From a virus, in the UHGV virus genome UHGV-0031053: a stretch of DNA of 54,577 nucleotides. One strand, written 5' to 3'. The translations under genes were made by a program, and so were the position numbers. The notes under the pieces were generated by a model. It made no database searches. It was not told where the DNA came from and was given only the letters and a program-made list of their open reading frames with translations. Of the stretch, positions 1,024 through 54,544 are shown piece after piece. Within the stretch, counting starts at the first letter, position 1; each line of letters starts with the position of its first letter.

Positions 1024-2046
1024 ATGAAAATTAACACAATTACAAAATTATTTAAATCTGGTATTAATAAATTGTCATTTAAATTTAATAAAAATAAACC
1101 AGAAATATTAGTAGCAACAGCAATTATATCTAGCATTGGAGCTGTTGTAACTGCATGCATAGCTACAAATAAGGCTAATAATGTTATTGAGCCATTTAAT
1201 AAAAAAGTAGCCGATATAAAAAATAAATTATCTGATGAAACAGCAATTGCAACAGGTGAAGTTAATCCAATAGTTCAAAAAAAGAAACTTGCTAAGACTT
1301 ATTTATCTGCCTTTTCTAAGTTAGCAGTATTATATTCACCTTCAGTTTGCTTATTAGCTATTTCTGCTGGTTCAACAATAGGATCACATAAAATTATGAA
1401 GAATAGAGCATTAGCCTTAGCAGCTGCTTATACAACTGTAGATAGTGGGTTTAAGGCTTATCGTCAAAGAGTTAAGGAAAGATTTGGCGAAGATGTTGAA
1501 GACCTTATTTATCGTAATGTTAAGGACGAAAAAGTTCTAGTTAAAAAGCATGACGAACAAGGAAATGAAGTTGAGGTTGAGGAAATTCAAAAAGTTGCTC
1601 ATCATGATACTTCAAATGAATTTGGATATTTATTTGATGAATCTAATAGGTTATGGGAGAATTCAGCAAAACAAAATATTGATTTAATACTGAATACTCA
1701 AAAATGGCTAAATGATAGTTTAATGGCTAAGAAGTATGTATTTCTTGATGAAGTATTTAGAGCTTTAAATATTCAAGCGGAAAGTATATCTCCACAATTA
1801 GCTAGAATGAGTAAAACATTTGGATGGGTATATGACCCAAGCGATTTAACAAGGGATTCATTTATTTCTTTTGGCATTACTAAACCCGGTTCAAATAGAG
1901 ATTTAAATAAGGCTGGTATGGATGCAATTAGATTTAATCAACCAAGCATTTGGCTATCATTCAATGTCGATGGTGATATTGTTACTCCTTATGATGAAAA
2001 AGGTAAACCAAGAAAGACTTTCTTGAATTATATTTCCGAGTTCTAA
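1024..2046 (+). CDS. membrane protein, member of a 3-copy paralog family (with 52954-53796 and 53780-54544)
   Basis: RBS AGAGGGG. N-terminal TM segment then K-rich stretch then a shared core (KTYLSAFSKLAVLYSP...AAAYTTVDSGFKAYRQRVKERFGED) resembling the two genes at the window end. Confidence 0.55.
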   Translation: MKINTITKLFKSGINKLSFKFNKNKPEILVATAIISSIGAVVTACIATNKANNVIEPFNKKVADIKNKLSDETAIATGEVNPIVQKKKLAKTYLSAFSKLAVLYSPSVCLLAISAGSTIGSHKIMKNRALALAAAYTTVDSGFKAYRQRVKERFGEDVEDLIYRNVKDEKVLVKKHDEQGNEVEVEEIQKVAHHDTSNEFGYLFDESNRLWENSAKQNIDLILNTQKWLNDSLMAKKYVFLDEVFRALNIQAESISPQLARMSKTFGWVYDPSDLTRDSFISFGITKPGSNRDLNKAGMDAIRFNQPSIWLSFNVDGDIVTPYDEKGKPRKTFLNYISEF

Positions 2047-3206: not shown

Positions 3207-6200
3207 ATGGTAGATTTTATTCAAATATCTGCTAGATCTAAAGGCAAAGTAGTAGAAATCTACCCAAAATTTATCATTGGAAAAACTAAAGATTTAATGA
3301 TTAAAGGAGGAGATTTCTATGCTATATGGATTGAAGAAAAGGGGTTATGGTCCACTGATGAGCAAGATGTCATAACTTTAATTGACAATGAATTAACAAA
3401 GTACGCCAATGAGCATAAATCTAAGTTTGAAGATGATTACGTAAATATATTGTATATGCATGATGCTGATTCTGGAACAATAGATAGATGGCATAAATAT
3501 GTTCAAAAACAAATGCGAGATACTTATAAGGATTTAGATACAAGTTTAATATTCTCGAATGAAAAAACTAATAAGGATATGTATGCTAGTAAAACTTTAT
3601 CATATCCGCTAGTAAGTGGTAATTGTGAGAATTATGAAAAACTTATATCTACATTGTATGATGAGGATGAGCGTAGAAAAATTGAATGGGCTATTGGAGC
3701 GATTGTTAGTGGAGATTCAAAGCACTTGCAGAAATTTTTAGTATTATATGGTCCACCGGGTAGCGGTAAATCGACAATATTAAATATAGTCCAAATGTTA
3801 TTTGATGGCTACTATACAGTGTTTGAAGCATCTGTATTAGGCTCACCAAATGCTCAATTTGCTATGGAGCAGTTCAAGTCCAATCCATTAGTAGCAATAC
3901 AACAAGATGGTGATTTATCTAAGATTGAGGATAACACTAGATTGAATTCATTGATATCGCATGAATTAATGGTAGTTAATGAAAAACATAAGTCATTATA
4001 TTCAGTCAAATTCAGATGCATGTGCTTGCTCGGTACTAATAAATTTATTAAGATTACAGATTCTCAATCAGGTATGATAAGACGTCTAATTGATGTAGTA
4101 CCATCTGGGCGAAAGTTACCTAATAGTGAGTACGAAGACATAATGGGAAAAATACCATTTGAGCTTAGTGCAATAGCATATCATTGTAAGAGTGTTTATA
4201 CCAAATATGCACATTATTATGATAACTACAAACCTATTCGTATGATGGGTGAATCTAATGATTTCTTTAATTTCATATTAGACAGTTACTTCACATTTGA
4301 GAAAGAGGATGGGGTAAGTTTAAAGCAAGCATGGGAGCTTTATAAAATGTACTGTAGTGAGTCTAATATTCCTTATCCGTTGACTAAGAGAGTATTTAGA
4401 ACTGAACTTGCTAATTATTTTAGGGATTATTCGGATAGAGTTAAGGTTGGCGATGAATGGGTTAGAAGTTGGTATTCGGGTTTTAAATACGAAATGCTAA
4501 ATAATACAATCGAAAAAACAAATGCAAAAGTAGTAGATGAACCTGTGAATTATATTGACTTCAAGGAACAAAAGTCTAACCTTGACATTTTATGTGCTGA
4601 TTGTCCTGCTCAATATGGTACAGATGCAGGTATCCCTAAACGTAAATGGGATAATGTTACAACTAAGTTATCTGATTTAGATACAGCTAAATTGCATTAC
4701 CTTAAAGTTCCAGAGAATCATATTGTTATTGATTTTGATTTAAAAGATGAAGATGGTAATAAGTCGTTCGAAAGGAACTTAAAGGAGGCTTCTAAATGGC
4801 CTAAAACATATGCTGAATTATCTAAATCTGGCGGTGGAATCCATTTACATTATATTTACAATGGTGATGCTTCAAAATTATCAAGATTGTATGCTGACGA
4901 TATCGAAATAAAGATATTTACAGGCAATAGTTCACTGAGAAGAAAACTTACAAAGTGTAATAGTGAACCTATTAATACAATCAGCTCTGGCTTACCGATA
5001 AAAAAAGGAGAAGGCAAGATGGTTAATTTTGAAACAATTAACAATGAGAAGGCTCTAAGAACAATAATTAAAAAGAACCTTCATAAAGAAATACATCCGG
5101 CGACAAAGCCATCTATTGATTTTATTTATAAGGTTTTAGAGGATGCTTATGAGTCTGGTATTGTATATGACGTTTCTGATTTGTATAATGCAGTACTTTC
5201 ATTTGCTAATGCTAGTACAAATCAGTCTGAATATTGTTTGAAATTAGTAACAAAGATGCATTTTAAATCAGATTTAGCATCTGAGAGCGTTGACTATTGT
5301 GATAGTGACCCCGTTGAGAAACCTATTACAATGTTTGATATTGAGGTATTTCCAAATGTATCATTTGTTAATTTTAAACAAGTTGGCGATGATAAGCCAA
5401 TGAAAAGATTTATAAATCCAAAACCTAATGAAATTGAGGCATTAATTAAAAATCATAGGATTGTTGGTTTCAATTGTAGAGGCTATGATAATCATATTTT
5501 ATATGCGATGATGCTCGGATATACAAATATGCAATTGTATAATCTATCACAGAAATTGGTCGGGGCTAATAAGAAAGATATGAATGGTAAATATGCCGGT
5601 TTCTTAGAGGCATACAACATAAGTTATACGGATATTTACGATTATGCAGTTAAGAAACAAAAGTTAAAAAAGTGGGAACTTGAATTAATGGATGAGTGGA
5701 ATCTTAAGCATCCACATATGCAAATTAAGCACCACGAATTAGGTTTGAAATGGGACCAGCCTGTTCCTGAAGAGTTATGGCCTAAAGTATCTGAGTACTG
5801 TGATGATGATGTATATGCAACCGAGGCAACTTGGTTTGCAACTCAAGCCGACTTCAAGGCAAGAGAAATATTAGTAGAACTTGTTAAGATTATTCATGGT
5901 ATTGATGCAAATGTTAATATGACTACTAATACATTATCAGCAAAGATTATATTTGGAAATAACAAAACACCTCAGTTAAATTATGTCGCAGCTCAAGAGC
6001 AATTGCGAAAGGAATTTCCGGAGTATGAATTTAAGCAAATAACTGATGATGGCGGTAAAACACATTGGGTAAATTGGTATAGAAATACTGATTTAGGTTT
6101 CGGTGGATATATATATGCTTCACTGGGAATGTATGGAAATCTTGATGTAGAAGATGTAGAAAGTATGCATCCAACAACTATCGAGGTTCTTAAATTGCTA

Positions 6201-7154
6201 GGTGAAGAAGGTACAAAATTATTTTCAGTTATTAAAAATCTAAGAATTAATATTAAACATAAAGAATTTGATAAAGCAAGACATCTATTTGAAGGTAAGT
6301 TAGCACCATATCTTGAAGATGAGGATATGGCAAAGGGACTAGCTGGTGCATTAAAGATAGTTATAAACAGTGTGTATGGTCTTACATCAGCTAAATTTGA
6401 TAATCCATTCACAGATAGACCAAATAATGCTAATAACATTGTCGCATTAAGAGGAGCTCTTATGATGAGAACACTTCAAGATGAGGTTGAAGCTCGTGGA
6501 TTTAAGGTAGTACATATTAAGACAGATTCAATTAAGATTGCTGATGCAACACCTGAGATAATTGAATTTGTTAGAGAATTTGGTAAAAAGTATGGTTATA
6601 ACTTTGAAACAGAGGATACATTTGACCGTATATGTCTTGTGAATGATGCAGTGTATATTGCTAAAGATAAAGAAGGACAATGGCATGCAACAGGAGCTCA
6701 GTTTGCTGTACCTTACGTGTTTAAGAAATGCTTTAGTAAAGAACCTATCGAATTCAAAGATATGTGTGAAATTAAGGAAGTTCAAACTGCTATGTTCCTA
6801 GATTTTGGAGAAGGTAAGGATTTACGATTTGTAGGTAAGGTTGGTTCATTCACACCAATTAAATTAAATTGTGGTGGCGGCTTACTTGTTAAGGAGCAAT
6901 TAAAGAAAGATGGCTCTATTGGAATGGATGCGGTTACTGGCACAAAAGGATATCAATGGCTTGAATCGTCAGATGTGTCATCTAATCTACTAATGGATTC
7001 AATTGATAAGTCTTATTATGAGGAACTTGTCAATAAGGCTGTTGAAACAATAAATAAATATGGGGACTATGAGTGGTTTGTATCTGATGATCCATATCAA
7101 GGTCCTGTATATATTAATGGACGACCTGACTATTCAATCGGATGTCCATTTTAA
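3207..7154 (+). CDS. multidomain replication protein: P-loop NTPase + AEP-type primase (prim-pol) domain + family-B DNA polymerase with 3'-5' exonuclease
   Basis: Walker A LVLYGPPGSGKST (~nt 3761-3787). AEP motif I VIDFDLKD (~4730-4750) and motif II SGGGIHLHYIY (~4829-4855). PolB Exo I MFDIEVFPN (~5336), Exo II YCDDDVYATE (~5795), motif A LDVEDVESMHPT (~6148-6180; His where the steric-gate Tyr of DxxSLYPS normally sits), motif B KIVINSVYG (~6352-6378), motif C HIKTDSI (~6508-6534). Confidence 0.75.
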   Translation: MVDFIQISARSKGKVVEIYPKFIIGKTKDLMIKGGDFYAIWIEEKGLWSTDEQDVITLIDNELTKYANEHKSKFEDDYVNILYMHDADSGTIDRWHKYVQKQMRDTYKDLDTSLIFSNEKTNKDMYASKTLSYPLVSGNCENYEKLISTLYDEDERRKIEWAIGAIVSGDSKHLQKFLVLYGPPGSGKSTILNIVQMLFDGYYTVFEASVLGSPNAQFAMEQFKSNPLVAIQQDGDLSKIEDNTRLNSLISHELMVVNEKHKSLYSVKFRCMCLLGTNKFIKITDSQSGMIRRLIDVVPSGRKLPNSEYEDIMGKIPFELSAIAYHCKSVYTKYAHYYDNYKPIRMMGESNDFFNFILDSYFTFEKEDGVSLKQAWELYKMYCSESNIPYPLTKRVFRTELANYFRDYSDRVKVGDEWVRSWYSGFKYEMLNNTIEKTNAKVVDEPVNYIDFKEQKSNLDILCADCPAQYGTDAGIPKRKWDNVTTKLSDLDTAKLHYLKVPENHIVIDFDLKDEDGNKSFERNLKEASKWPKTYAELSKSGGGIHLHYIYNGDASKLSRLYADDIEIKIFTGNSSLRRKLTKCNSEPINTISSGLPIKKGEGKMVNFETINNEKALRTIIKKNLHKEIHPATKPSIDFIYKVLEDAYESGIVYDVSDLYNAVLSFANASTNQSEYCLKLVTKMHFKSDLASESVDYCDSDPVEKPITMFDIEVFPNVSFVNFKQVGDDKPMKRFINPKPNEIEALIKNHRIVGFNCRGYDNHILYAMMLGYTNMQLYNLSQKLVGANKKDMNGKYAGFLEAYNISYTDIYDYAVKKQKLKKWELELMDEWNLKHPHMQIKHHELGLKWDQPVPEELWPKVSEYCDDDVYATEATWFATQADFKAREILVELVKIIHGIDANVNMTTNTLSAKIIFGNNKTPQLNYVAAQEQLRKEFPEYEFKQITDDGGKTHWVNWYRNTDLGFGGYIYASLGMYGNLDVEDVESMHPTTIEVLKLLGEEGTKLFSVIKNLRINIKHKEFDKARHLFEGKLAPYLEDEDMAKGLAGALKIVINSVYGLTSAKFDNPFTDRPNNANNIVALRGALMMRTLQDEVEARGFKVVHIKTDSIKIADATPEIIEFVREFGKKYGYNFETEDTFDRICLVNDAVYIAKDKEGQWHATGAQFAVPYVFKKCFSKEPIEFKDMCEIKEVQTAMFLDFGEGKDLRFVGKVGSFTPIKLNCGGGLLVKEQLKKDGSIGMDAVTGTKGYQWLESSDVSSNLLMDSIDKSYYEELVNKAVETINKYGDYEWFVSDDPYQGPVYINGRPDYSIGCPF

Positions 7155-7178: not shown

Positions 7179-7772
7179 ATGAGTAATTTATCAACTAATG
7201 CTTATTTAGCATTGCAACAATCAGAGTTTATATTTGGAACTAGAAATAATGCTAAGGATATTGAAATCCGTAATGCAGTTATATTATTTAGAAACTTAGC
7301 TGGCGCTGAGCGTGTAGGTAAGAGAAAGGATGGTTCTTCATTTAAGTCACGTGGAGCTGATTTTAAGGTTGCTATTTCCGAGGAAGTATATAAAACACTT
7401 GAAAAGATTGGTACTTTCTCTATTTCAGCTTTACCAGTTGAGTTGCCTGAGAGTGAGGAAACAACATTATATTTATTAAGAGTTAAGGTTACTATGGATT
7501 CTGAGTGGCCTCCAGTTATTAAATTATATACTAAAATGAATGGTAAGACATCTGTTAATCAATTGACTAAAGATAGTATTGAAACAGCTGATAGAGTTGA
7601 AATCGATAGAGCAGATATCATCATTCATCCAAGTGAGTATGATGATGGAAAGTTCTCAGTATATTTAAAGCAAATGAATATTTGTACTGTAGAGGCTCAA
7701 GATTTTGGTGGTTATTGGGATGAACTAATTGCTTCAGATGATGTTGAGACTAATCCATTTCCTCAGAACTAA
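7179..7772 (+). CDS. hypothetical protein (possible ssDNA-binding, DUF2815-like)
   Basis: Position between polymerase and helicase. Weak resemblance of the N-terminal region (VILFRNLAGAER...) to phage SSB-like proteins. Not verified. Confidence 0.3.
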   Translation: MSNLSTNAYLALQQSEFIFGTRNNAKDIEIRNAVILFRNLAGAERVGKRKDGSSFKSRGADFKVAISEEVYKTLEKIGTFSISALPVELPESEETTLYLLRVKVTMDSEWPPVIKLYTKMNGKTSVNQLTKDSIETADRVEIDRADIIIHPSEYDDGKFSVYLKQMNICTVEAQDFGGYWDELIASDDVETNPFPQN

Positions 7773-7782
7773 GAGGTTCTAA

Positions 7783-9033
7783 ATGGAGGGAGTACAGCTA
7801 TTCGATTGGCAAGTAGAAGCTCTCCATAAAATGAAAAATGGTTGTATATTGAATGGCGGTGTCGGTTCTGGTAAGTCTAGGACTGGCATCGGCTATTATT
7901 ATATTCTCAATGGTGGAGAGATTAATACTAAAAAGTATGTGAAGATGACAAATCCTACTGACTTATATATTATCACTACCGCCAGAAAGAGGGATACTGG
8001 CGAATGGGATAAGGATTTGAAACCATATGGTTTGTCAGTTAACTCTGAGATTAATATGTACAAGAATAAGGTCATTGTAGATTCTTGGAATAATATAGGA
8101 AAATATTATGGTGTTAAAAATGCTTTCTTTATATTTGATGAGCAAAGAGTTGTTGGCTATGGAAAGTGGTCAGCTACGTTCATAGAGATATCAAAGCATA
8201 ATAAGTGGATTTTATTGTCAGCTACACCGGGCGATACGTGGATGGACTTTATACCAGTGTTTATAGCAAATGGATTTTACAAAAATAAGACTGACTTTTG
8301 TAATAAGCACGTTATATATAGTCGATATACTAACTATCCGAAAGTTGATAAGTTCTTTGGCGAAGGGCGTCTTATAAGACTTAAAAAGGAAATACTTATT
8401 GATATGGATTTTCAAAGGAAGACTATTCCGCATAAGATTAAAATCTACACAGAATATGATAAAAAATTATATTCAATTGTAGATAGGCAAAGGTGGAATC
8501 CGTATAAGGAAGAACCTATCAAGAATGCAGGCGAATGGTGCTTATGCTTGAGAAGAGTAGTTAACAGCTCAGAAGAAAGAAAAAAAGCAGTTCTAGATAT
8601 AGTAAAAGAACATCCAAAAGCTATTATATTCTATACATTTGATTATGAACTTGAGATGCTCAGGGATGTATTTAAGGATTATCCACATGCTGAGTGGAAT
8701 GGACATAAACATCAAGATTTACCTGATGGCGATGAATGGGTTTACTTTGTTGAGTATATTGCTGGTAATGAAGGATGGAATTGCATTACAACTGATACTA
8801 TTATTTTCTATTCACAGAACTATTCATATAAGGTTATGACTCAGGCTGCGGGTAGAATAGATAGGCTTAATACACCATATACGGACTTATATTATTATCA
8901 TCTTATGTCAATGTCGAATATAGATAGAACTATAGCTCGTTCATTAGCATGCAAGAAAAAATTCAATGAAAATAAATATTACGAAAGCAAATTCGGAAAT
9001 GAAAAGGAGAAAGAAATTTATGGAATTCGATGA
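7783..9033 (+). CDS. SF2 (DEAD/DEAH or SNF2-like) DNA helicase
   Basis: Motif I GGVGSGKSRTG, motif II FIFDEQ, motif III LLSATPG, motif VI QAAGRIDR. Confidence 0.75.
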   Translation: MEGVQLFDWQVEALHKMKNGCILNGGVGSGKSRTGIGYYYILNGGEINTKKYVKMTNPTDLYIITTARKRDTGEWDKDLKPYGLSVNSEINMYKNKVIVDSWNNIGKYYGVKNAFFIFDEQRVVGYGKWSATFIEISKHNKWILLSATPGDTWMDFIPVFIANGFYKNKTDFCNKHVIYSRYTNYPKVDKFFGEGRLIRLKKEILIDMDFQRKTIPHKIKIYTEYDKKLYSIVDRQRWNPYKEEPIKNAGEWCLCLRRVVNSSEERKKAVLDIVKEHPKAIIFYTFDYELEMLRDVFKDYPHAEWNGHKHQDLPDGDEWVYFVEYIAGNEGWNCITTDTIIFYSQNYSYKVMTQAAGRIDRLNTPYTDLYYYHLMSMSNIDRTIARSLACKKKFNENKYYESKFGNEKEKEIYGIR

Positions 9034-13754: not shown

Positions 13755-14069
13755 ATGGCAAAAAATAAAATATATCGTGTTGAAGCTGAATATCAAAAGC
13801 ATTTGATAGAAGAAATTTATCATCGCATTGATGAAGTAACAATTCTAAAAAATGATTCTGGTTATCTACAAGGTATTCCAGATTTGTGTATCTTAGGACC
13901 ACGAGGAAAGGATGCTTTGTTAGAGGTCAAGCTTCACGAGAATTCACCACACAGACCAAACCAAGACTACTATATTCAGCGTGAATGTAAACGTGGAGGT
14001 TTTGCTAGATTTATATATCAAGAGAATGAAGAGGAAGTTCTTGGCGATTTGGTGAATTGGTTTAAGTAA
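13755..14069 (+). CDS. VRR-NUC domain nuclease
   Basis: GIPDLCILGPRGKDALLEVK matches the VRR-NUC PD...(E)xK signature. Confidence 0.7.
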   Translation: MAKNKIYRVEAEYQKHLIEEIYHRIDEVTILKNDSGYLQGIPDLCILGPRGKDALLEVKLHENSPHRPNQDYYIQRECKRGGFARFIYQENEEEVLGDLVNWFK

Positions 14070-14089: not shown

Positions 14090-14728
14090 ATGAAGTGGAA
14101 TGACCACCATCAATTAGAAGGTAAACATGCCTTCTTAAGTGCTAGCAAATTTACTTGGCTTAATTGGGATCCAGAAACTTTGGAAATGAGATTCTATAGT
14201 CAATATCAACAAGAGATTGGAACTCTTATTCACGAGCTTGCTCACAGGCGTATTGTGTGTAGACGTAAAATTAATAAAAATGATGTCCATTTGATTGAAG
14301 ATGTCATGGACCAGAATTATATTCCAAGAGGAGCTTATGACCCAGCCAAAATATTGGAGAATTTAGTACCATTTATTAATGACGCTATTGGCTTTAGAAT
14401 GGATAGCGAAATCATTCTATATTACAACCAATATTGCTTTGGCACAACTGATGCAATCGTATATGATGAGAAGAATAAGATTCTTAGAATACACGATTAC
14501 AAGAATGGAGTTACTCCAGCACATATGGAGCAGTTATTAATCTATGCGGCATTATATTGTTTGGAATACAACAAAAATCCAAAAGATTTTGCTACTGAGC
14601 TTAGATTATATCAGTTGAGTGAAATTATTGTTCACCAACCAAAGCCAGAAGAGATATTAACAATTATAAATGTTATTAAGCAACAAACATTATGTATTTA
14701 TGGATTTGCAGGAGGCGACATTAGATAA
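14090..14728 (+). CDS. putative PD-(D/E)XK-family nuclease (Cas4/RecB-like fold?)
   Basis: GTTDAIVYDEKNKILRIHDYK fits hhhD...(D/E)xK. Also contains IHELAH, so a metalloenzyme alternative is not excluded. Confidence 0.35.
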   Translation: MKWNDHHQLEGKHAFLSASKFTWLNWDPETLEMRFYSQYQQEIGTLIHELAHRRIVCRRKINKNDVHLIEDVMDQNYIPRGAYDPAKILENLVPFINDAIGFRMDSEIILYYNQYCFGTTDAIVYDEKNKILRIHDYKNGVTPAHMEQLLIYAALYCLEYNKNPKDFATELRLYQLSEIIVHQPKPEEILTIINVIKQQTLCIYGFAGGDIR

Positions 14729-17700
14729 TGGAAGAAAATACTTTAAAGGCATCGGCCGAAGAAATGGAAATGTTCCACGATTTATTTAGTGGAGCCGAAG
14801 AACTAATTAATGAAATAAATGACGAAGATTATATTCAACATTATGGTATGCCAAGACGTTCTGGACGTTATCCTTGGGGCTCTGGTGATAATCCATATCA
14901 ACATTCAGGTGATTTCTTAGCTCGTAAGAATGAGTTAAAGAAATCTGGAATGAGCGAAAAAGAAATAGCTGATTATTTTAATATGTCAACTACACAGTAT
15001 AGAGCAGCTGTATCAATTGCAAATGCTGAGCGTAGATCATATCAAGTAGAAACAGCTAAATCATTAAAAGCTCATGGATATAATAATGTTGAAATTGCTA
15101 AAAAGATGGGATTACCCGGAGAATCATCAGTTAGGTCATTACTTAATTCAGATTCCGAATCAAGAATGAAAAAAGCAGAATCAACAGCGTCAAATTTAAA
15201 GAAATTAGTTGATGAACGAGGTATGATTGATGTCGGTATTGGTGCGGAGCGTCAATTAGGTATATCAAAAGAAAAAATGAACCAAGCACTTGAGATGCTA
15301 AAAATGGAAGGATATGAGGTTTATGGAAATAGAGTTCCACAAGCCACTAATCCCGGTAAATATACAACATTAAAAGTGCTTTGCCCTCCCGGAACTAAAC
15401 ATAGTGAAATTTATGACTATGATAAAATTAATTATATTAATGATTTAACATCAAGAGATGGCGGAGATACATTTGAACCAACATTCGTATATCCTAAATC
15501 ATTAGATTCAAATCGTTTAGCAATTAGATATGCTGAAGATGGTGGCGTAAATAAAGATGGCGTTATGGAAATACGTCGTGGAGTAAAGGATCTATCATTA
15601 GGTGAATCTAATTATTCACAAGTACGTATTTTAGTTGATGGTAAACGTTATTTAAAAGGTATGGCTGTGTATTCAGATGATCTTCCTGATGGTGTTGACA
15701 TTGTATTTAACACTAACAAGGGCAAGGATAAATCAAAAATGGAAGTTTTAAAGGAAATAAAAGAAGATTCCGAAAATCCATTTGGTTCTTCAGTAAGATC
15801 AACCTATTATATTGATGAAAATGGAGAAAGACAGCTATCATTAATAAACAAGCGTTCCGACGAAGGAGAATGGGGGAATTGGTCAGACCATTTGCCATCG
15901 CAGTTCTTAGCCAAGCAATCTTTAAGCCTTATTAAGAAGCAATTAAATTTAACAGCATCTGATAAGGAGGATGAATATGATGAAATATGTCGTCTTACTA
16001 ATCCAACAATTAAAAGAAATATGCTAGAAACGTTTGCTGATGATTGCGACTCTGCTGCAGTTCATTTACAAGCTGCTGCATTGCCAGGTCAAAAATATCA
16101 GGTTATATTACCATTGACATCAGTCAAAGATACCGAAGTATATGCACCAAATTTCAAAGATGGTACGCAAGTAGCACTTGTGCGATATCCACATGGTGGA
16201 ACATTTGAAATACCAATTCTTAAAGTAAATAATAAACTTGAAGAAGGCAAGAAAATGATGGGTACAAATCCAGCTGATGCTATTGGTATAAATAAAAATG
16301 TAGCAGATAGATTATCTGGTGCTGATTTTGATGGTGATACTGTAATGGTTATACCACTAAGTGATAAGGTAAAAATAACTTCTACTAAGCAACTAAAAGA
16401 ACTAGAAGGATTTGATACTAAATTAGCATATCAATATGATGACAAGGTAAAAGATGCTAATGGTAAAGAACATTACTATCGTGCTGGCAAAGAAATAAAA
16501 ATTATGAACAATACCCAAACAGAAATGGGTAAAATTTCAAATCTTATCACAGATATGACATTAAGAGGTGCTTCTACAGAAGAGTTAGCACGTGCTGTTA
16601 AACATTCAATGGTTGTTATTGATGCTGAAAAGCATAAATTAGATTATAAACAATCTGAAATAGACAATAATATTGACCAATTGAAACGTGATTATCAGGG
16701 GCGTGAAGACAGTACACGTTATGGTGGAGCTTCAACTTTAATTTCTAAAGCTAAGTCACCAATCATAATTAATGAAAGAAAAGATGGTGCTTTCTTTACA
16801 AAGGAAGGAAATCATCCAGCATCTGTGGTTGATGAAGATAAGAAAATATATGTAGATGATATTACTGGTGAAATACTAAAGCGTAATCAACTTAAGCCAG
16901 TTGTATATGTAAATCCGGAAACTGGTGAAAAAATGTATCATGATACAAATCGTACATTTAGACAAGCTGTTTATAAGGATTCTAATGGTAAAACTAGAAA
17001 ATCTACTGTTATTACAAAAGATGGAAAAGATTATTTCAAAGATGAGGATGGACAATATACTCAAGTTACAAATGAAATAATTAAGGTTAGAAAAGCAACT
17101 CAAGAATCTACAAAAATGGCTGAAACATCTAATGCAAGAACACTATCATCTGGTACCCCACAAGAGGAAGCATATGCAGAATATGCAAATAAAATGAAGG
17201 CTTTAGCCAATAGAGCAAGAAAAGAAGCATTAGTTACTAAGGATATTCCATATTCTCCAGCAGCTAAGGAAGCATATTCAGAAGAGGTTAAGACCCTTAA
17301 TGCTAAATTAAATATAGCCGAACTTAATGCACCTAAGGAAAGACAAGCTCAAACTATAGCAAATACAGCTATTCGAGCTCAAACGCAAGCAAATCCTAAG
17401 ATGACTAGTGAGGAGAAAAAGAAATTATCTCAAAGAGAAATAGCTAAAGCTAGAATTAAAGTAGGTGCGGGTAAGAAAAATATAGAAATAACACAAAAAG
17501 AGTGGGCAGCCATTCAAGCAGGTGCCATTTCTAAATCTCGCTTACAAAATATCATAAATAATTGTGATACAAAGACGCTGAGACAGTTAGCTACACCTAG
17601 AGATAAGGTATCTGTAAGTAGTTCTAAGATTGGTCGTATGAAGAGTATGGCTAATTGTGGATATACCAATGCAGAAATAGCAGAAGCCCTAGGATTATCA

Positions 17701-17739
17701 GCTTCTACTGTAGTTAAATATATTAATGGAAAGGAGTAA
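14728..17739 (+). CDS. single-chain RNA polymerase homologous to multisubunit RNAP beta/beta-prime (YonO-like), fused to HTH DNA-binding modules
   Basis: Beta-like DPBB: VDGKRYLKGMAVYS (nt 15634-15675) and LPDGVDIVFNTN (15688-15711), cf. GDKMAGRHGNKGVIS...GTPVDIVLNP. Beta-prime-like DPBB: VALVRYPHGG...FEIPIL...SGADFDGDTVMVIPLS (nt ~16180-16365), cf. VLLNRAPTLHRLG...NADFDGDQMAVHVPLS. HTH-like segments near the N-terminus (MSEKEIADYFNMSTTQYRAAVSIA; YNNVEIAKKMGLPGESSVRSLL) and at the C-terminus (GYTNAEIAEALGLSASTVVKYI, sigma region 4/LuxR-like). Confidence 0.75.
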   Translation: MEENTLKASAEEMEMFHDLFSGAEELINEINDEDYIQHYGMPRRSGRYPWGSGDNPYQHSGDFLARKNELKKSGMSEKEIADYFNMSTTQYRAAVSIANAERRSYQVETAKSLKAHGYNNVEIAKKMGLPGESSVRSLLNSDSESRMKKAESTASNLKKLVDERGMIDVGIGAERQLGISKEKMNQALEMLKMEGYEVYGNRVPQATNPGKYTTLKVLCPPGTKHSEIYDYDKINYINDLTSRDGGDTFEPTFVYPKSLDSNRLAIRYAEDGGVNKDGVMEIRRGVKDLSLGESNYSQVRILVDGKRYLKGMAVYSDDLPDGVDIVFNTNKGKDKSKMEVLKEIKEDSENPFGSSVRSTYYIDENGERQLSLINKRSDEGEWGNWSDHLPSQFLAKQSLSLIKKQLNLTASDKEDEYDEICRLTNPTIKRNMLETFADDCDSAAVHLQAAALPGQKYQVILPLTSVKDTEVYAPNFKDGTQVALVRYPHGGTFEIPILKVNNKLEEGKKMMGTNPADAIGINKNVADRLSGADFDGDTVMVIPLSDKVKITSTKQLKELEGFDTKLAYQYDDKVKDANGKEHYYRAGKEIKIMNNTQTEMGKISNLITDMTLRGASTEELARAVKHSMVVIDAEKHKLDYKQSEIDNNIDQLKRDYQGREDSTRYGGASTLISKAKSPIIINERKDGAFFTKEGNHPASVVDEDKKIYVDDITGEILKRNQLKPVVYVNPETGEKMYHDTNRTFRQAVYKDSNGKTRKSTVITKDGKDYFKDEDGQYTQVTNEIIKVRKATQESTKMAETSNARTLSSGTPQEEAYAEYANKMKALANRARKEALVTKDIPYSPAAKEAYSEEVKTLNAKLNIAELNAPKERQAQTIANTAIRAQTQANPKMTSEEKKKLSQREIAKARIKVGAGKKNIEITQKEWAAIQAGAISKSRLQNIINNCDTKTLRQLATPRDKVSVSSSKIGRMKSMANCGYTNAEIAEALGLSASTVVKYINGKE

Positions 17740-20461: not shown

Positions 20462-22192
20462 ATGCTATCTAATACAGCAGTTCCCATTTATTATGGGCAA
20501 TTCAGAGATTCAGTCTTAAAAGGTGAATTACCTGTCTGTGCTACCATTTCAATGGAAATGAATCGCATAGATAAATTAATTGAAAATCCCGGTGTATTTT
20601 ATGATGATGAGGCTGTTAATGGCTTTATTTCATACTGCGAAAATGAATTAACACTGACTGATGGTTCGGATTTAAAAATGCTTGATTCATTCAAGCTATG
20701 GGCTGAACAAGTATTTGGTTGGTACTATTTCATAGAGCGAAGTGTCTTTGTACCTGATGAAGAAGGCATAGGTGGACACTATGAAAAACGCCTGATAAAG
20801 AAAAGATTAACGCAAAAGCAATTTTTAATAATACCGAGAGGTGCTGCAAAATCAATGTATGCATCTTTTATTCAAAGTTACTTTTTAAATATCGATACTA
20901 GTACTACTTATCAGGTATCAACTGCTCCTACAATGAAGCAGGCTGAAGAGGTAATGTCACCAATAAGAACCTCTATCACAAGGGCGAAAGGCCCTTTTTT
21001 TAAATTTCTAACAACTGCGAATACTCAAGGTAAAGTTAAGAAGAGAATGCTAGAATCCACCAAAAAGGGAATAGAAAACTTCTTAACAGGCTCATTACTT
21101 GAAATTAGACCTATGAGAATAGATAAACTGCAAGGTATGAGATGCAAAATAGCTACTATAGATGAGTGGCTTTCTGGAGATGTTCGAGAAGATGTAATTG
21201 GTGCAATCGAGCAAGGTGCTTCTAAATTAGACGATTGGCTAATTGTAGCAACTTCATCAGAAGGTACTGTTAGAAATGGTAGCGGTGACACAATTAAAAT
21301 GGAATTAATGTCAATTCTTAAAGGTGAATACATTAATCCACATGTATCTATTTGGTACTACAAATTAGATGCAATTGAAGAAGTTGGTAAACCTGAATTG
21401 TGGATTAAGGCTAATCCAAATTTAGGTAAAACTGTTTCATATGAAACATACCAATTGGATGTAGAGAGAGCCGAGAAGGCTCCGGCAACAAGAAATGATA
21501 TTTTGGCAAAAAGATTTAACCTTCCTATGGAGGGTTTTACATATTTCTTTGCTTATGAAGAAACAGAAGTACATCCTCATCGAGATTATTGGGGACTACC
21601 ATGCTCGTTGGGTGCAGACTTATCACAGGGTAATGACTTCTGTGCATTTGCATTTTTATTTCCATTAAATAATAGTCAATTCGGTATTAAAACATTGAGT
21701 TATATAAGTTCATTAACATTACACAAATTACCGCCAGCTCTTAGGGCTAAATATGATGAATTTATTAATGAAGGTACATTGATAGTCTTGGATGGAACAA
21801 TTCTTGATATGAATGATGTTTATGATGATTTAGATAATCATATAACAAGTCACGATTATGATGTACGTTGCTTAGGTTTCGACCCTTATAATGCAAAAGA
21901 GTTTGTCAATCGTTGGCAAACGGAAAACGGCCCATTTGGAATAGAAAAAGTATCTCAGGGGGTAAAAACGGAATCGGTACCACTTGGCGAATTGAAAAAC
22001 CTTGCAGAAGCAAGATTACTTTTATTTGATGAAAAAATAATGACTTTTACAATGGGTAATTGTATTGCTATTGAGGATACAAACGGCAATAGAAAATTAA
22101 ATAAGCAAAAAAGAGAAGCTAAAATTGATAATGTGGCAGCCTTACTGGATGCCTTTGTTGCATATAAAGCACATAAGGAGGCATTTGACTAA
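20462..22192 (+). CDS. terL: terminase large subunit
   Basis: Walker A-like IIPRGAAKSMYAS and Walker B KIATIDEW. C-terminal RNaseH-like nuclease region (CSLGADLSQGNDFCAFAF). 576 aa. Confidence 0.85.
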   Translation: MLSNTAVPIYYGQFRDSVLKGELPVCATISMEMNRIDKLIENPGVFYDDEAVNGFISYCENELTLTDGSDLKMLDSFKLWAEQVFGWYYFIERSVFVPDEEGIGGHYEKRLIKKRLTQKQFLIIPRGAAKSMYASFIQSYFLNIDTSTTYQVSTAPTMKQAEEVMSPIRTSITRAKGPFFKFLTTANTQGKVKKRMLESTKKGIENFLTGSLLEIRPMRIDKLQGMRCKIATIDEWLSGDVREDVIGAIEQGASKLDDWLIVATSSEGTVRNGSGDTIKMELMSILKGEYINPHVSIWYYKLDAIEEVGKPELWIKANPNLGKTVSYETYQLDVERAEKAPATRNDILAKRFNLPMEGFTYFFAYEETEVHPHRDYWGLPCSLGADLSQGNDFCAFAFLFPLNNSQFGIKTLSYISSLTLHKLPPALRAKYDEFINEGTLIVLDGTILDMNDVYDDLDNHITSHDYDVRCLGFDPYNAKEFVNRWQTENGPFGIEKVSQGVKTESVPLGELKNLAEARLLLFDEKIMTFTMGNCIAIEDTNGNRKLNKQKREAKIDNVAALLDAFVAYKAHKEAFD

Positions 22193-46348: not shown

Positions 46349-46550
46349 ATACATTATTTATACACATAATTTAAAAAAGTGGTATCAAATATAACTATTT
46401 TTATTGTTTTAATAATTCTACTTATATTATTAAATAGTATCGCTTTTGACACAAAATGGCATTAAATCACACTTTTTTAATTGTCAAGTTAGTAAAAAAA
46501 TGCAGGAAATTGTGTTGTTTAATGGTTTATTCCTACACTATTCCTACACT
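46349..46550. promoter_or_regulatory. AT-rich region downstream of int with CTACAC-type boxes, candidate attP
   Basis: TACATTAT (46349-57) and TACACATAAT (46361-70). Tandem TCCTACACT at 46531-39 and 46542-50 abutting the int stop. Confidence 0.35.
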
Positions 46551-47752
46551 CATTTTTTTATTTTTTCTATTTCAGATGCATACCACTCTGGTTTCCTTTT
46601 TGTGTAAATTGCTTCGGTTATATCATTTATTGTATGGCCTACCATATATTTTATTGCATATTCATCTACATCATATTCTTTGCACATAGATACAAATTGA
46701 ACACGGCAATCATGTGGCATATGAATGTCATTTAATTTTAATGCATTTATTTTTGAAATAAAATGACGCCTATATAAATCGTATGTCAATTGTTTTCTTT
46801 TGTTTGTTTTTATTATCGATGCTAAATGTTGTATATTATTAGATTTTGCAATGTTATAAAAATATAATATAAAATCTCTTATCTTGCTGTGTATCGGTAC
46901 TATTCTATTTGTACCCGCCATAGTTTTCATGCCACCCTTTATGGTCCAATTAATAATATCTACATTTTCTATAAGAATATTACATAATTCTCTTGGACGC
47001 CATCCCATATAGCATTGTATCAATATTAACTTAATAAGCTCATCACTCGAATGGGCCCATAGAGTTTGAATTTCTTCATCTGTAAAATTGATATGATGCT
47101 TTATGTCTACTTGATCAACTATTTCTCCGGAATAAAATTTTATTTGTTTTATAATATTTTGTTCAACATAACCACTATTAGCTGCATAATCAAAAACTGA
47201 ATTTAGAAATATTTTATATTTTTTCATACTCGTAATTGAAGGAGCAAAATCAATTAAAAATTGCTTGACCCATTGAGGTGTAAATTTAGTGATGTCTTTA
47301 TCCCATATTTCTTTTAATCTATTTTCAAAAGACTTATAATTTCTTAAAGTTAATTCATTAATTCCATTTTCAATTTTACTCAAGTATTCGTCAGCGACTT
47401 CTTTAAAAGTTCTAGTTTCATTGTAATATTTTGGATCCTTGTTATATTTTATAAGTGCTTCATATGCTTCATTGTAAGTAGCAAAATAACCTTCAGGCTT
47501 AAGTAGCTTAGATATTGGCTTGCCATTATCGTTAAAACCAATGGTGACCATAGCTCTAAATGGTTTTCTTAGGTTTCTAGTTTTAATTTCTGTTATTTGG
47601 CCAAATCCATTTGGTAATCTTTGTCTTTTGGATTTTGCATTATTTCTTTTTACCTTTTTTATCATAGGCTCAAAAGGATATCCGCAATGAGGACAAGAGA
47701 ATGCCTTATCGGAAACCTGTAATTCACACTCAGGACATTTAATCAATGCCAT
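46550..47752 (-). CDS. int: tyrosine integrase with N-terminal zinc-ribbon
   Basis: ORF track 46550-47764; ATG (MALIK...) preferred, 9 nt after AGGAG. Catalytic signature HDCRVQF...VGHT...TEAIYTKR (H-x-x-R, H, Y). N-terminal CPECELQ...CPHCGYPFEP. Confidence 0.85.
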   Translation of the reverse strand: MALIKCPECELQVSDKAFSCPHCGYPFEPMIKKVKRNNAKSKRQRLPNGFGQITEIKTRNLRKPFRAMVTIGFNDNGKPISKLLKPEGYFATYNEAYEALIKYNKDPKYYNETRTFKEVADEYLSKIENGINELTLRNYKSFENRLKEIWDKDITKFTPQWVKQFLIDFAPSITSMKKYKIFLNSVFDYAANSGYVEQNIIKQIKFYSGEIVDQVDIKHHINFTDEEIQTLWAHSSDELIKLILIQCYMGWRPRELCNILIENVDIINWTIKGGMKTMAGTNRIVPIHSKIRDFILYFYNIAKSNNIQHLASIIKTNKRKQLTYDLYRRHFISKINALKLNDIHMPHDCRVQFVSMCKEYDVDEYAIKYMVGHTINDITEAIYTKRKPEWYASEIEKIKK

Positions 47753-47813
47753 AATACACCACACTCCTACACAATTTCATCGATATTTTGATACTATCAC
47801 ACAAACAATTAGA

Positions 47814-52953: not shown

Positions 52954-53796
52954 ATGGACACTAAAATGCAAAGAAAGTTGGCAATTGGTTTATCACTGCT
53001 AAATTCAATTGGTGTAATCGCAACAATTGGAACAGCAATAAAAGGAACTAAATTGGCAACAAAAAAACTAAATAATTCTGAAAAAAAACTTAACAAGAAG
53101 GAAGTTTTTAAACTTGTGTGGAAGGATTATATTCCTACAGCAGTTGTTGCTACGGCTACTATTGCTAGTGGTTTATCATCAGCATTGTTATCAAGAAAAG
53201 TGGAGGCATCATTGATTAGTGCTGCTACAATGATTGATTACAATTATAAGAAGTATAAAGATAAAGTAAAAGAAATGCTTGGAGTAGATGGCGAACGTCA
53301 AGTTACAAGTTCTATTGCGAATGATAAGTTCGATGCGCAAAAAGAAGAAATAATTGAAAAACTAAAGAACTCTAATCGTAAATTATTTTACGAAGAGCAT
53401 ATTGGTTTCTTCATAGCTGATGAGACCGATATTGCATGGGCTATTAATCAGTTAAATGAGGATGTTTCTTTTGCCTCATATTCATCTAATGGGTTTACGA
53501 CATTAAAAAAATTTATCGAGTATTCGCGTGCTGAATTATTAGACAAAGAGGTTGAAGAAGGATGGTTTAACTTCGGATGGTCTTGTGATTACTTAAGTGA
53601 AGAATGGGAAAATGTTTGGATTCATGTTTATTTAAGAGATGATATTGAAGAATACGGAAATCCATATACTGAGGTATGTTGGTGCGAAACACCAGTTTAT
53701 AATCCCGAATGTTGGTATGAGTGGAGTACAGAACACACAATTTCATTAGAAGAATATAGGAAAGGAGCACCAAAACAATATGAAATCGAAAGTTAA
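52954..53796 (+). CDS. membrane protein, paralog family member (with 1024-2046 and 53780-54544)
   Basis: KDYIPTAVVATATIASGLSSALLSRKVEASLISAATMIDYNYKKYKDKVKEMLGVDGE parallels the other two members. Confidence 0.5.
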   Translation: MDTKMQRKLAIGLSLLNSIGVIATIGTAIKGTKLATKKLNNSEKKLNKKEVFKLVWKDYIPTAVVATATIASGLSSALLSRKVEASLISAATMIDYNYKKYKDKVKEMLGVDGERQVTSSIANDKFDAQKEEIIEKLKNSNRKLFYEEHIGFFIADETDIAWAINQLNEDVSFASYSSNGFTTLKKFIEYSRAELLDKEVEEGWFNFGWSCDYLSEEWENVWIHVYLRDDIEEYGNPYTEVCWCETPVYNPECWYEWSTEHTISLEEYRKGAPKQYEIES

Positions 53797-54544
53797 CCAG
53801 TTGATTAGATCAATTAAGCCTTGGCTAAGTAAACATAGTAATGCTATTATGACTGGAACTGGTATGTGTTTAGTTGCTGCAACAGTAGCTCATACTGGAT
53901 ATGCAACCTTTAAGGCAACTAAAAAGATTGAAAAATTAAAAGAAACAAAATCTTTAACTAAGACAGAAATAGTTAAAGAGACTTGGAAGTATTATGTTCC
54001 ACCAGTAGTTGAGTTTCTATCTGCTGAGCTATTAATATTTGGTGGGTTCAGAGCTGAGAGTAAAAAAGTGGCAGCATTGTCGCTTGCTTATACAGCAGCT
54101 GAAACAGCTTTAACCGAATATCAAGATACCGTTAAAGAAGTTGTAGGCGAAAAAAAAGAGAATGAAATTCGTGAGAAAACAAGTGAAAAAGTAGTCCAAA
54201 AATTAGACAATAATGTTGTGCAATCATTACCAATACTTGATGATGGAGCAGTATGGTTTATAGATGATTTAACAAGACAAGCTCCATTTAAGTCCACTTG
54301 GCAAGATGTAAGAGCTAAGGCAAATGATTTAAATTGTCGAATTAACACTAATGCAGAAGGATTAGTAACTGTAAATGATTGGCTAGATGAATTAGGATTA
54401 GAACCAGTTGCAACAGGTTATGAGCTTGGATGGCGTTGGAATCATTTAATTGACATTCGTTTAGATGCATCTGTAAGAGATGGGCGAGTATTCGGTGTCA
54501 TTAGGTACATAAATATGCCTGTAGTATTAAACAGTGATTATTAA
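53780..54544 (+). CDS. membrane protein, paralog family member
   Basis: KYYVPPVVEFLSAELLIFGGFRAESKKVAALSLAYTAAETALTEYQDTVKEVVGE. Confidence 0.5.
   Translation: MKSKVNQLIRSIKPWLSKHSNAIMTGTGMCLVAATVAHTGYATFKATKKIEKLKETKSLTKTEIVKETWKYYVPPVVEFLSAELLIFGGFRAESKKVAALSLAYTAAETALTEYQDTVKEVVGEKKENEIREKTSEKVVQKLDNNVVQSLPILDDGAVWFIDDLTRQAPFKSTWQDVRAKANDLNCRINTNAEGLVTVNDWLDELGLEPVATGYELGWRWNHLIDIRLDASVRDGRVFGVIRYINMPVVLNSDY

Follow-up and report, generated by a model that had tools for sequence, protein, structure and literature searches.

The closest characterised relative of the protein studied here is gp55 of Lactococcus phage 1706, in which the fusion of a helicase, a primase and a DNA polymerase was described by Kazlauskas et al. 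in 2016 (PMC4889955). The clade was named HelPrimPolB by Kazlauskas et al. in 2020, for family B DNA polymerases (PolBs) bearing an N-terminal superfamily 3 (SF3) helicase and a PrimPol; it was placed as a divergent member of the EpsilonN-like clade within PolBmain, apart from the pPolB+piPolB cluster, and was reported to show 'profound' differences in MotifC and KxY and to be prevalent in metagenomes (PMC7544198). Here we analyse the gene located at 3207..7154, on the + strand, of the virus genome UHGV-0031053 (54,577 nucleotides, the whole of which is called the window). Its product is a new, divergent gut-phage member of an architecture that had thus been described in 2016, named in 2020 and biochemically dissected in 2025. 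It is very probably an orthologue of GP55 with a GP55-like function, in which His988, where PolB motif A has its steric-gate tyrosine, would still act as the sugar gate. This motif A histidine is real, extends over the whole clade, is derived and is undiscussed in the HelPrimPolB and GP55 literature.

The biochemical reference for the family is the work of Zhang et al. (NAR 2025), who purified GP55 of phage 1706 (Fremauxvirus) and found four activities in it. Its helicase is UTP/dTTP-dependent and is lost in the K189A mutant; the helicase domain mediates dimerisation and the helicase confers strand displacement. Its RNA primase needs the PriS-like domain (D509A) as well as a new alpha-helical domain (aHD; residues Y655 and F667), which consists of two helix pairs and replaces the usual helix-bundle or PriL-like partner; the primers start with GTP and CCAAC-like sites are preferred. 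The 3'-5' exonuclease is lost in D712A/E714A and the DNA polymerase in D949A. The PolB uses deoxyribonucleoside triphosphates (dNTPs) to extend primers down to 4 nt in length, dATP being preferred for extension, and primer extension is efficient at 1.25 nM enzyme. Single-stranded M13 (ssM13) can be replicated completely de novo, and the 7.2 kb of ssM13 are fully replicated in 0.2 min at 50 nM enzyme (all in PMC12205980).

Domain organisation of the window protein

The open reading frame (ORF) list and its translation gave a single frame with an ATG start and a TAA stop, encoding 1315 aa. The domains and motifs that were located in it are given below; lines without a source in brackets are sequence motifs.

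3207..7154, + strand: whole gene, HelPrimPolB / GP55-type four-in-one replicase (ORF; phrog_4210, E=0; BLASTP with GP55)
3207..3608, + strand: N-terminal domain ahead of the ATPase core, aa 1-134 (AlphaFold2 model)
3609..4496, + strand: D5-type SF3 helicase, aa ~135-430, with a C-terminal Pox_D5-like region (fold and profile searches)
3750-3776, + strand: Walker A GPPGSGKST, aa 182-190, with K188
3888-3914, + strand: Walker B LVAIQQDGD
4032-4040, + strand: SF3 sensor GTN, with Asn278
4071-4085, + strand: Arg finger GMIRR, with Arg292/293
4569..5006, + strand: PriS-like catalytic domain, archaeo-eukaryotic primase (AEP) type, aa ~455-600 (profile and fold searches)
4722-4748, + strand: AEP motif I IVIDFDLKD, aa 506-514, with D509/D511
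4821-4853, + strand: AEP motif II SKSGGGIHLHY, aa 539-549
4899-4946, + strand: AEP motif III region IEIK...SSLRRK (conservation)
5040..5270, + strand: aHD, aa ~612-688 (AlphaFold2 helices, GP55 alignment)
5166-5168 and 5202-5204, + strand: aHD residues Y654 and F666 (match to GP55 Y655 and F667)
5304..5906, + strand: PolB 3'-5' exonuclease subdomain, aa ~700-900 (motifs, PolB fold)
5331-5357, + strand: Exo I FDIEVFPN, with D711/E713
5466-5504, + strand: Exo II GFNCRGYDNH, with N756/Y760/D761
5796-5825, + strand: Exo III YCDDDV, with Y864/D868
5907..6806, + strand: PolB polymerase subdomain, aa ~901-1200 (AlphaFold2, Foldseek, profile alignment with Pol II)
6153-6176, + strand: motif A DVESMHPT, aa 983-990
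6168-6170, + strand: codon CAT of His988, at the canonical PolB steric-gate Tyr position (alignments)
6354-6380, + strand: motif B KIVINSVYG, aa 1050-1058
6513-6530, + strand: motif C HIKTDS, aa 1103-1108
6519-6521, + strand: codon AAG of Lys1105, where motif C normally has its first Asp (alignments)
6807..7151, + strand: C-terminal region conserved in the family, aa 1201-1315 (AlphaFold2: beta-rich plus helices, confident)

Sequence searches with Pfam were of little help. Over the whole protein DUF5906 alone scored above threshold, Pox_D5 and Prim-Pol stayed below it, and DNA_pol_B (PF00136) gave no match anywhere in the 1315 aa even at E<=1. Because hidden Markov models (HMMs) of sequence alone were weak, the two halves of the protein were predicted separately with AlphaFold2 (AF2) from alignments of the family. 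The C-terminal half (aa 689-1315) was modelled with a predicted local distance difference test (pLDDT) score of 90.9, and the top 50 Foldseek matches to it in the PDB were all family B polymerases (probability 1.00, E about 1e-14 to 1e-12), among them those of 9°N, KOD, Tgo and Pfu, E. coli Pol II and Pol alpha. A single-sequence phmmer search of the PDB gave a marginal match to Pol II (E=0.026); significance was reached with the family profile, whose alignment to the E. coli enzyme spanned motifs A to C at E=4.7e-6. In PHROGs, phrog_4210 'DNA polymerase' was matched over positions 1-1291 of 1304 (E=0). The reading of the C-terminal half as something other than a PolB, to which Pfam taken by itself would lead, was set aside on the Foldseek matches and the Pol II profile alignment. 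The missing PF00136 match is explained by the divergence of the PolB domain, for which the fold and profile evidence is clear; two relatives described below, P0145 and the PolB of Staphylococcus phage HHU-22, scored 19.1 and 26.1 bits with the same model. The C-terminal region (aa 1201-1315) contains the conserved segments GTKGY.W and GDYEWF.

The N-terminal half (aa 1-700) was modelled with a pLDDT of 81.7. Its first 134 residues form a block with pLDDT about 78-92 in which many residues are near-invariant across the family. The region that follows has the D5-type helicase fold and matches HMMs of that family, and its SF3 motifs are conserved among the homologues, namely the Walker A and Walker B boxes, the sensor Asn278 and Arg292/293. 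The central segment has an AEP fold, and a profile built from 36 diverse members matched the SaPI5 primase (E=0.0016) and also the NrS-1 primase, aligning DFD onto their DxD motif and SKSGxGxH onto SPSGTGLH. Pfam Prim-Pol was matched by 29 of these 36 members (E<=1, best 1.6e-5) and AEP-TOTE by 18 of them, while the AEP segment of the window protein itself scored 17.9 bits with Prim-Pol (E=0.0043), that is, below the cut-off of 22.8. The catalytic residues D509-F-D511 and S541-G-G-G-I-H546 are invariant across the family. So are I-E567-I-K and R578/R579 of the motif III region, a putative equivalent of the canonical motif III Asp. AF2 placed four helices in the aHD (614-625, 630-650, 657-668 and 674-683), and here Y654 is conserved in 138 and F666 in 141 of 152 family representatives.

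The original prediction, made from the sequence, had proposed a Walker A NTPase, an AEP core with DFD and SGGGIHLHY, and a PolB with Exo I, Exo II and motifs A, B and C, in this order along one polypeptide. All of these were located, the NTPase being a D5-type SF3 helicase by fold and profile searches, and HMM, fold and profile searches confirmed the order. The same prediction had named a non-polymerase fold in the C-terminal half, or AEP-like motifs that do not align with true primases, as the outcomes that would overturn it; neither appeared, since the C-terminal half has the PolB fold and the AEP motifs do align to true primases. The order that it had called unusual is indeed so, the primase being N-terminal in 94% of primase-helicase fusions (PMC4889955); the fusion itself, however, had already been described in 2016.

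Orthology to GP55

A BLASTP comparison with GP55 aligned residues 6 to 1287 with 38% identity (810 bits, E=0). The two proteins are of nearly the same length (1317 aa in GP55 and 1315 aa here), have the same domain order and are colinear over residues 1-1300. In an alignment of 122 close homologues, the mutated GP55 residues K189, D509, D712, E714 and D949 fall on the identical K188, D511, D711, E713 and D983 of the window protein; together with Y655 and F667 (Y654 and F666 here), all seven residues critical for GP55 activity are identical, and they are conserved in the family as a whole. GP55 also carries the motif A His and the motif C Lys (VKTDS), as the window protein does, and it is active. 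The differences between the two lie in the identity of only 38% and in the phage lineage and host, the window being a phage of 32% GC from a Hadza human-gut metagenome. The organisation is that of the HelPrimPolB group (PMC4889955, PMC7544198) without difference in kind, and the divergence of motif C reported for that group takes here the form KTDS.

Beside the domains, folds, conservation and homology that were observed directly, we infer all the activities of the window protein by its orthology to GP55. The protein would load on phage DNA, probably as a dimer held by the helicase domain, and its SF3 motor would unwind the duplex. Short RNA primers would be made de novo by the AEP domain with the help of the aHD; the PolB, acting in cis or in trans, would extend primers of at least 4 nt with dNTPs and with proofreading, and the helicase would supply strand displacement. 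The annealing protein, Snf2-type ATPase, endonuclease and exonuclease encoded nearby (see below) would probably serve recombination-dependent replication and processing.

Conservation of motifs A, B and C

Replacement of the motif A tyrosine by a histidine had also been proposed from the sequence, and the alignments bear it out: His988 falls on the Tyr of LDYKSLYPS of Pol II, as well as on the Tyr of stand-alone phage PolBs. The family-profile alignment to Pol II places lDvaSlhP on LDYKSLYPS, and ikTDS on gDTDS of motif C. In Staphylococcus phage HHU-22 and in Enterococcus phage TwoStep, the stand-alone PolB reads DFASLYPN and DWGSLYPN, respectively, with Tyr in the His988 column. In the AF2 model, a beta strand (model residues 286-296) terminates at D983, and the helix that follows it (299-306) begins with S-M-H-P, this strand-helix arrangement being the expected layout of PolB motif A. 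The catalytic Asp, the Ser and the Pro of the DxxSLYPS consensus are present; with His for Tyr, motif A deviates from the consensus sequence, and the fold and the catalytic residues are those of a PolB.

Conservation was counted over 150 representatives clustered at 50% identity, with 152 sequences in the alignment, and the motif residues were invariant or near-invariant over these representatives. With the end-to-end match to phrog_4210 and the 252 phage records that cover at least 80% of the protein, this puts the motifs far beyond chance. Histidine occupied the column in all 122 close homologues, GP55 included, and in 150 of the 152 representatives. The two exceptions, P0257 (891 aa) and P0262 (1434 aa), read DIASQYPHS and thus have Tyr, and both keep the motif C Lys; P0262 has the full fused architecture, with a DUF5906 match. 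In a crude neighbour-joining tree rooted on the stand-alone PolBs these two sequences lay among the His lineages, the deep branches being of near zero length; they may be either basal or revertants. The K, N and G of motif B were found in 152/152 sequences (N1054, 152/152; Y1057, 151/152). The Exo I (D711/E713), Exo II (N756/Y760/D761) and Exo III (Y864/D868) residues were conserved as well.

Motif C, whose change the original prediction did not mention, reads KTDS: the second Asp of YxDTDS is kept and the first is replaced. Residue 1105 was Lys in 147 of the 152 sequences, Ser in 4 and Arg in 1, independently of the His or Tyr state of motif A. Active piPolBs share this loss, as do the B2/G2 and SITDG groups (PMC7544198). 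Since the stand-alone relatives already read NTD, the loss of the motif C Asp is older than the fusion. The histidine, in turn, marks the fused clade and is a derived state, because the nearest stand-alone PolBs keep Tyr; it is a hallmark and not a sign of decay, because it is carried by 150 of 152 representatives and by the active, dNTP-using GP55. The presence of Tyr at the same column in two fused members of the family suggests that His and Tyr are interchangeable on this scaffold. The terms 'steric gate' and 'tyrosine' are absent from the texts of Kazlauskas et al. of 2016 and 2020, where 'histidine' occurs once, in a statement on motif C of the B2/G2 groups (PMC4889955, PMC7544198).

Sugar selection and alternative readings of the polymerase

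Most likely, His988 is a competent variant of the gate that would stack under the deoxyribose as in PolD, in which H931 is an experimentally proven histidine steric gate; a histidine has also been proposed in family C (PMC7708050). The intact Asn and Tyr of motif B, in the finger domain, would back it up. In Pol epsilon, N828 and Y831 provide a second layer of sugar discrimination in the fingers (PMC10639073); in our own reading of the sequences they would correspond to the Asn and Tyr of KxxxNSxYG, the paper itself not using the term 'motif B'. A different reading, which we consider unlikely, is that the clade-wide change from Tyr to His has relaxed the gate, with the PolB inserting ribonucleotides appreciably; this might be an adaptation to dNTP-poor hosts, or might smooth the transition from RNA to DNA after the action of the protein's own primase. 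Such a relaxation would fit with the smaller size of His compared with Tyr and with the derived state of the His, the nearest stand-alone phage PolBs having kept Tyr. It would also fit with human PrimPol Y100H, where a Tyr-to-His gate loses sugar discrimination and NTPs are used as efficiently as dNTPs (PMC6362072); this precedent transfers poorly, because the fold of PrimPol is unrelated. On alkaline gels, GP55 products made with four NTPs plus dNTPs formed a smear of 600-4000 nt and those made with GTP alone gave discrete bands, which was ascribed by the authors to multiple priming (PMC12205980); we would expect alkali-labile embedded ribonucleotides to look similar. Other results obtained with GP55 speak indirectly against a grossly relaxed gate. 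With GTP and ATP only, full-length GP55 and a polymerase-deleted mutant yielded the same 2-22 nt RNAs, indicating that the PolB adds nothing detectable with NTPs alone; the addition of dATP shifted the products to near full-length extension, and products made with equimolar NTPs and dNTPs (0.5 mM each) were cut normally by EcoRI/NdeI (PMC12205980). The effectiveness of the PolD histidine and the intact Asn sensor of motif B argue in the same direction. Some points nevertheless weigh against a GP55-like enzyme with a competent gate. The words 'steric gate', 'ribonucleotide', 'histidine' and 'tyrosine' do not occur in the GP55 paper, in which ribonucleotide insertion by the PolB was not assayed (PMC12205980); the identity of 38% leaves room for a helicase NTP preference or a priming-site specificity that may differ from those of GP55; and, given the behaviour of the PrimPol change in its unrelated fold, a histidine may not automatically be a competent gate.

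The original prediction had further suggested a divergent piPolB-like enzyme. On such a reading the divergent PolB domain (His in motif A, no first Asp in motif C) would be primer-independent and start synthesis itself, leaving the AEP accessory or vestigial. The failure of Pfam DNA_pol_B to recognise the domain is compatible with this, and yet the evidence contradicts it, since GP55 depends on its primase to start DNA de novo: primase-less GP55 (D509A, or deletion of residues 1-688) made no de novo product and still extended supplied primers (PMC12205980). Moreover, the catalytic residues of the AEP do not vary over the family, the PolBs nearest in structure (archaeal PolB, Pol II, Pol alpha) depend on an RNA or DNA primer, and the clade falls in the EpsilonN-like clade of PolBmain, outside the pPolB+piPolB cluster (PMC7544198), so that we regard a piPolB-like mode of action as highly improbable. 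A vestigial AEP was rejected on the invariant catalytic residues and on the lack of de novo synthesis by primase-dead GP55. The least probable reading of all is that the substitutions at two canonical active-site positions mark a decaying or specialised polymerase, weak, of the repair type or inactive, in a phage that relies on the host replicase. It would have a parallel in the archaeal B2 PolBs with their lone motif C Asp, which had for a long time been taken to be inactivated and whose activity is weak and of the translesion type (PMC7544198). It is contradicted by the rapid replication of ssM13, with proofreading, by GP55, which bears the same His and Lys (PMC12205980). Also set against it are the invariance or near invariance of the catalytic Asp of motifs A and C, of the motif B Lys, Asn and Tyr and of the three Exo motifs, and the large size of a family in which purifying selection is clear (322 clusters at E<=1e-30). 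His988 and the motif C Lys together are a fixed hallmark of the clade and are compatible with efficient DNA synthesis.

Size and distribution of the family

A tblastn search over 50,697 phage records found homologues in 262 of them, 252 of which cover at least 80% of the protein. The best match and closest cultured relative was Faecalibacterium phage FP_oengus (54.5% identity), whose protein is annotated 'helicase/polymerase'; many others belong to Arthrobacter, Gordonia, Streptomyces, Rhodococcus, Listeria and Lactococcus siphophages and are annotated 'DNA primase/polymerase'. An exhaustive HMMER scan with the PolB part over 1.84 billion representatives gave 1127 matches at E<=1e-3 and 649 at E<=1e-10, in addition to the 322 clusters at E<=1e-30. 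Among the best 150 matches, 129 were of at least 1200 aa with the PolB at about residues 700-1300, and most of the shorter representatives were truncated or mis-started gene calls that keep the domain order. Hundreds of metagenomic clusters carry the fusion, and the family abounds in human-gut data. The identical protein was found on 17 public contigs; of the four that were detailed, three were Hadza or other human-gut metagenome assemblies, one of them with a length of 54,906 bp. When unfused His-PolBs were sought among the short representatives, P0156, on a 3.7-kb contig, was the only one that may be stand-alone.

Most of the metagenomic homologues are nameless and tagged with PF19263 (DUF5906) alone. 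One full-length homologue, P0006 (1296 aa), was named 'energy-coupling factor transporter ATP-binding protein EcfA2' by JGI, evidently a mis-annotation driven by the P-loop. On a 6.7-kb metagenomic contig (L012, 479-2833), AEP, aHD and PolB align continuously and in one frame to aa 459-1282 of the window protein, and gene calling splits this region into three ORFs (3-557, 602-970 and 1079-2881), which implies in-frame stop codons; these stops could reflect a pseudogene, a sequencing error or stop-codon recoding.

Related systems with other arrangements

The D5-type primase-helicases (vaccinia D5 / mpox E5, SaPI5, NrS-1 polymerase and African swine fever virus C962R) have the AEP first and are without a PolB, whereas the window protein has the helicase first, an aHD in place of the helix-bundle or PriL-like partner, and the PolB last. 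Full-length homologues with 40-55% identity, known by annotation, occur in siphophages that are mostly actinobacterial. The nearest unfused PolBs are those of Staphylococcus phage HHU-22 and of Enterococcus Efquatrovirus phages (e.g. TwoStep), with 21-24% identity over about 75% of the PolB domain; they share the Exo and Pol motifs and read NTD in motif C, and differ in being unfused and in having the Tyr of SLYPN. In HHU-22 (L002, 3983-7561) the stand-alone PolB is directly followed by a separate gene of 608 aa annotated 'DNA primase', the product of which matched only D5_N, DUF5906 and Pox_D5 in Pfam. The ancestors of the fusion may plausibly have looked like this, with a PolB gene beside a separate D5-like helicase gene.

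A different partner was seen in P0145 (1239 aa), which belongs to the same His-PolB clade (DIESMHPSS and HIKTDS; E=2.6e-145 to the PolB part of the window protein). Where the window protein has its SF3 helicase and AEP, P0145 has a zinc-ribbon-like CxxC segment (recognised by eye) with Toprim and DnaB_C helicase domains, as in a bacterial-type, T7 gp4-like primase-helicase. It was found at L008 8001-11720, L009 257-3976 and L010 275-3994, and it is unlikely to be an assembly chimera because the identical protein is present on 7 contigs from NCBI, JGI and Logan. Its neighbours include T2SSE ATPase, Flp-pilin and prepilin-peptidase genes in place of phage genes. P0145 looks like a swap of the primase-helicase module before a conserved PolB.

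Neighbouring genes and phage genome

Two genes follow the replicase gene directly, and two nuclease genes are found further downstream:

7179..7772, + strand: ssDNA-binding / single-strand annealing protein (phrog_4787, 1.9e-17; Pfam Phage_ssDNA_bind, 4e-15; orf66-like order)
7783..9033, + strand: Snf2-type superfamily 2 (SF2) helicase/ATPase (phrog_62 DNA helicase, 1.1e-56; PDB HELLS, 4.5e-6, and Chd1; orf67-like order)
13755..14069: endonuclease (within the orf66-69 correspondence)
14090..14728: exonuclease (within the orf66-69 correspondence)

The annealing protein, SF2 ATPase, endonuclease and exonuclease genes correspond to orf66-69 of phage 1706. In that phage about ten small ORFs lie between gp55 and the gene for the annealing protein, whereas in the window the two genes are adjacent.

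The window, with its 32% GC and nearly all genes on one strand, is clearly a siphophage genome. The following features belong to this context:

14728..17739, + strand: match to phrog_4291 'RNA-dependent RNA polymerase', 1003 aa (full length, E=0)
20462..22192: large terminase (siphophage context)
46550..47764, - strand: tyrosine integrase (Phage_integrase, 7.6e-9; SAM-like and central domains)
52954..53796, 53780..54544 and 1024..2046, + strand: three paralogous DUF6353 proteins (280, 254 and 340 aa)

The tyrosine integrase is the sole large gene on the minus strand, and its presence indicates a temperate lifestyle. The 14728..17739 product gave a weak match to the Pfam RdRP family PF05183 (22.9 bits, cut-off 23.8) and has a C-terminal segment resembling a helix-turn-helix or sigma-70 region 4; the product is a candidate phage RNA polymerase of the YonO-like, two-barrel, single-subunit kind, fused to a DNA-binding domain. 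On the Hadza contig L004 the three DUF6353 genes, which lie upstream of the replicase gene, are all close together, within about 4 kb, and in the window one is found at the start and two at the opposite end. Such a split across the ends indicates a genome of ~54.6-54.9 kb, either circular or terminally redundant, of which the window is a rotated copy.

Implications for the family

For annotation, Pfam sees DUF5906 alone in the 1315 aa, and the public metagenome records of the family are unnamed or misnamed. If P0145 is what it appears to be, it would show that the His-PolB is a movable module, able to go with primase-helicases of either type.

As to sugar selection, it is possible, although doubtful, that HelPrimPolB represents a large natural clade of replicative PolBs in which the change of the otherwise near-universal gate Tyr to His became fixed after or with the fusion to the primase and tunes sugar selectivity. 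Were this so, ribonucleotide insertion would be measurable at the cellular excess of NTPs, or NTPs would be used when dNTPs are scarce, with proofreading and the motif B Asn sensor intact, and the clade would be the first case of natural PolBs whose gate is non-aromatic and whose sugar selectivity is altered. The question can be sharply tested, as more than 98% of a large and active PolB clade has His at the gate, and both natural Tyr variants and purified GP55 exist. Whether the histidine is an equivalent gate or a natural relaxation would be of interest to replication enzymologists and to polymerase engineers.

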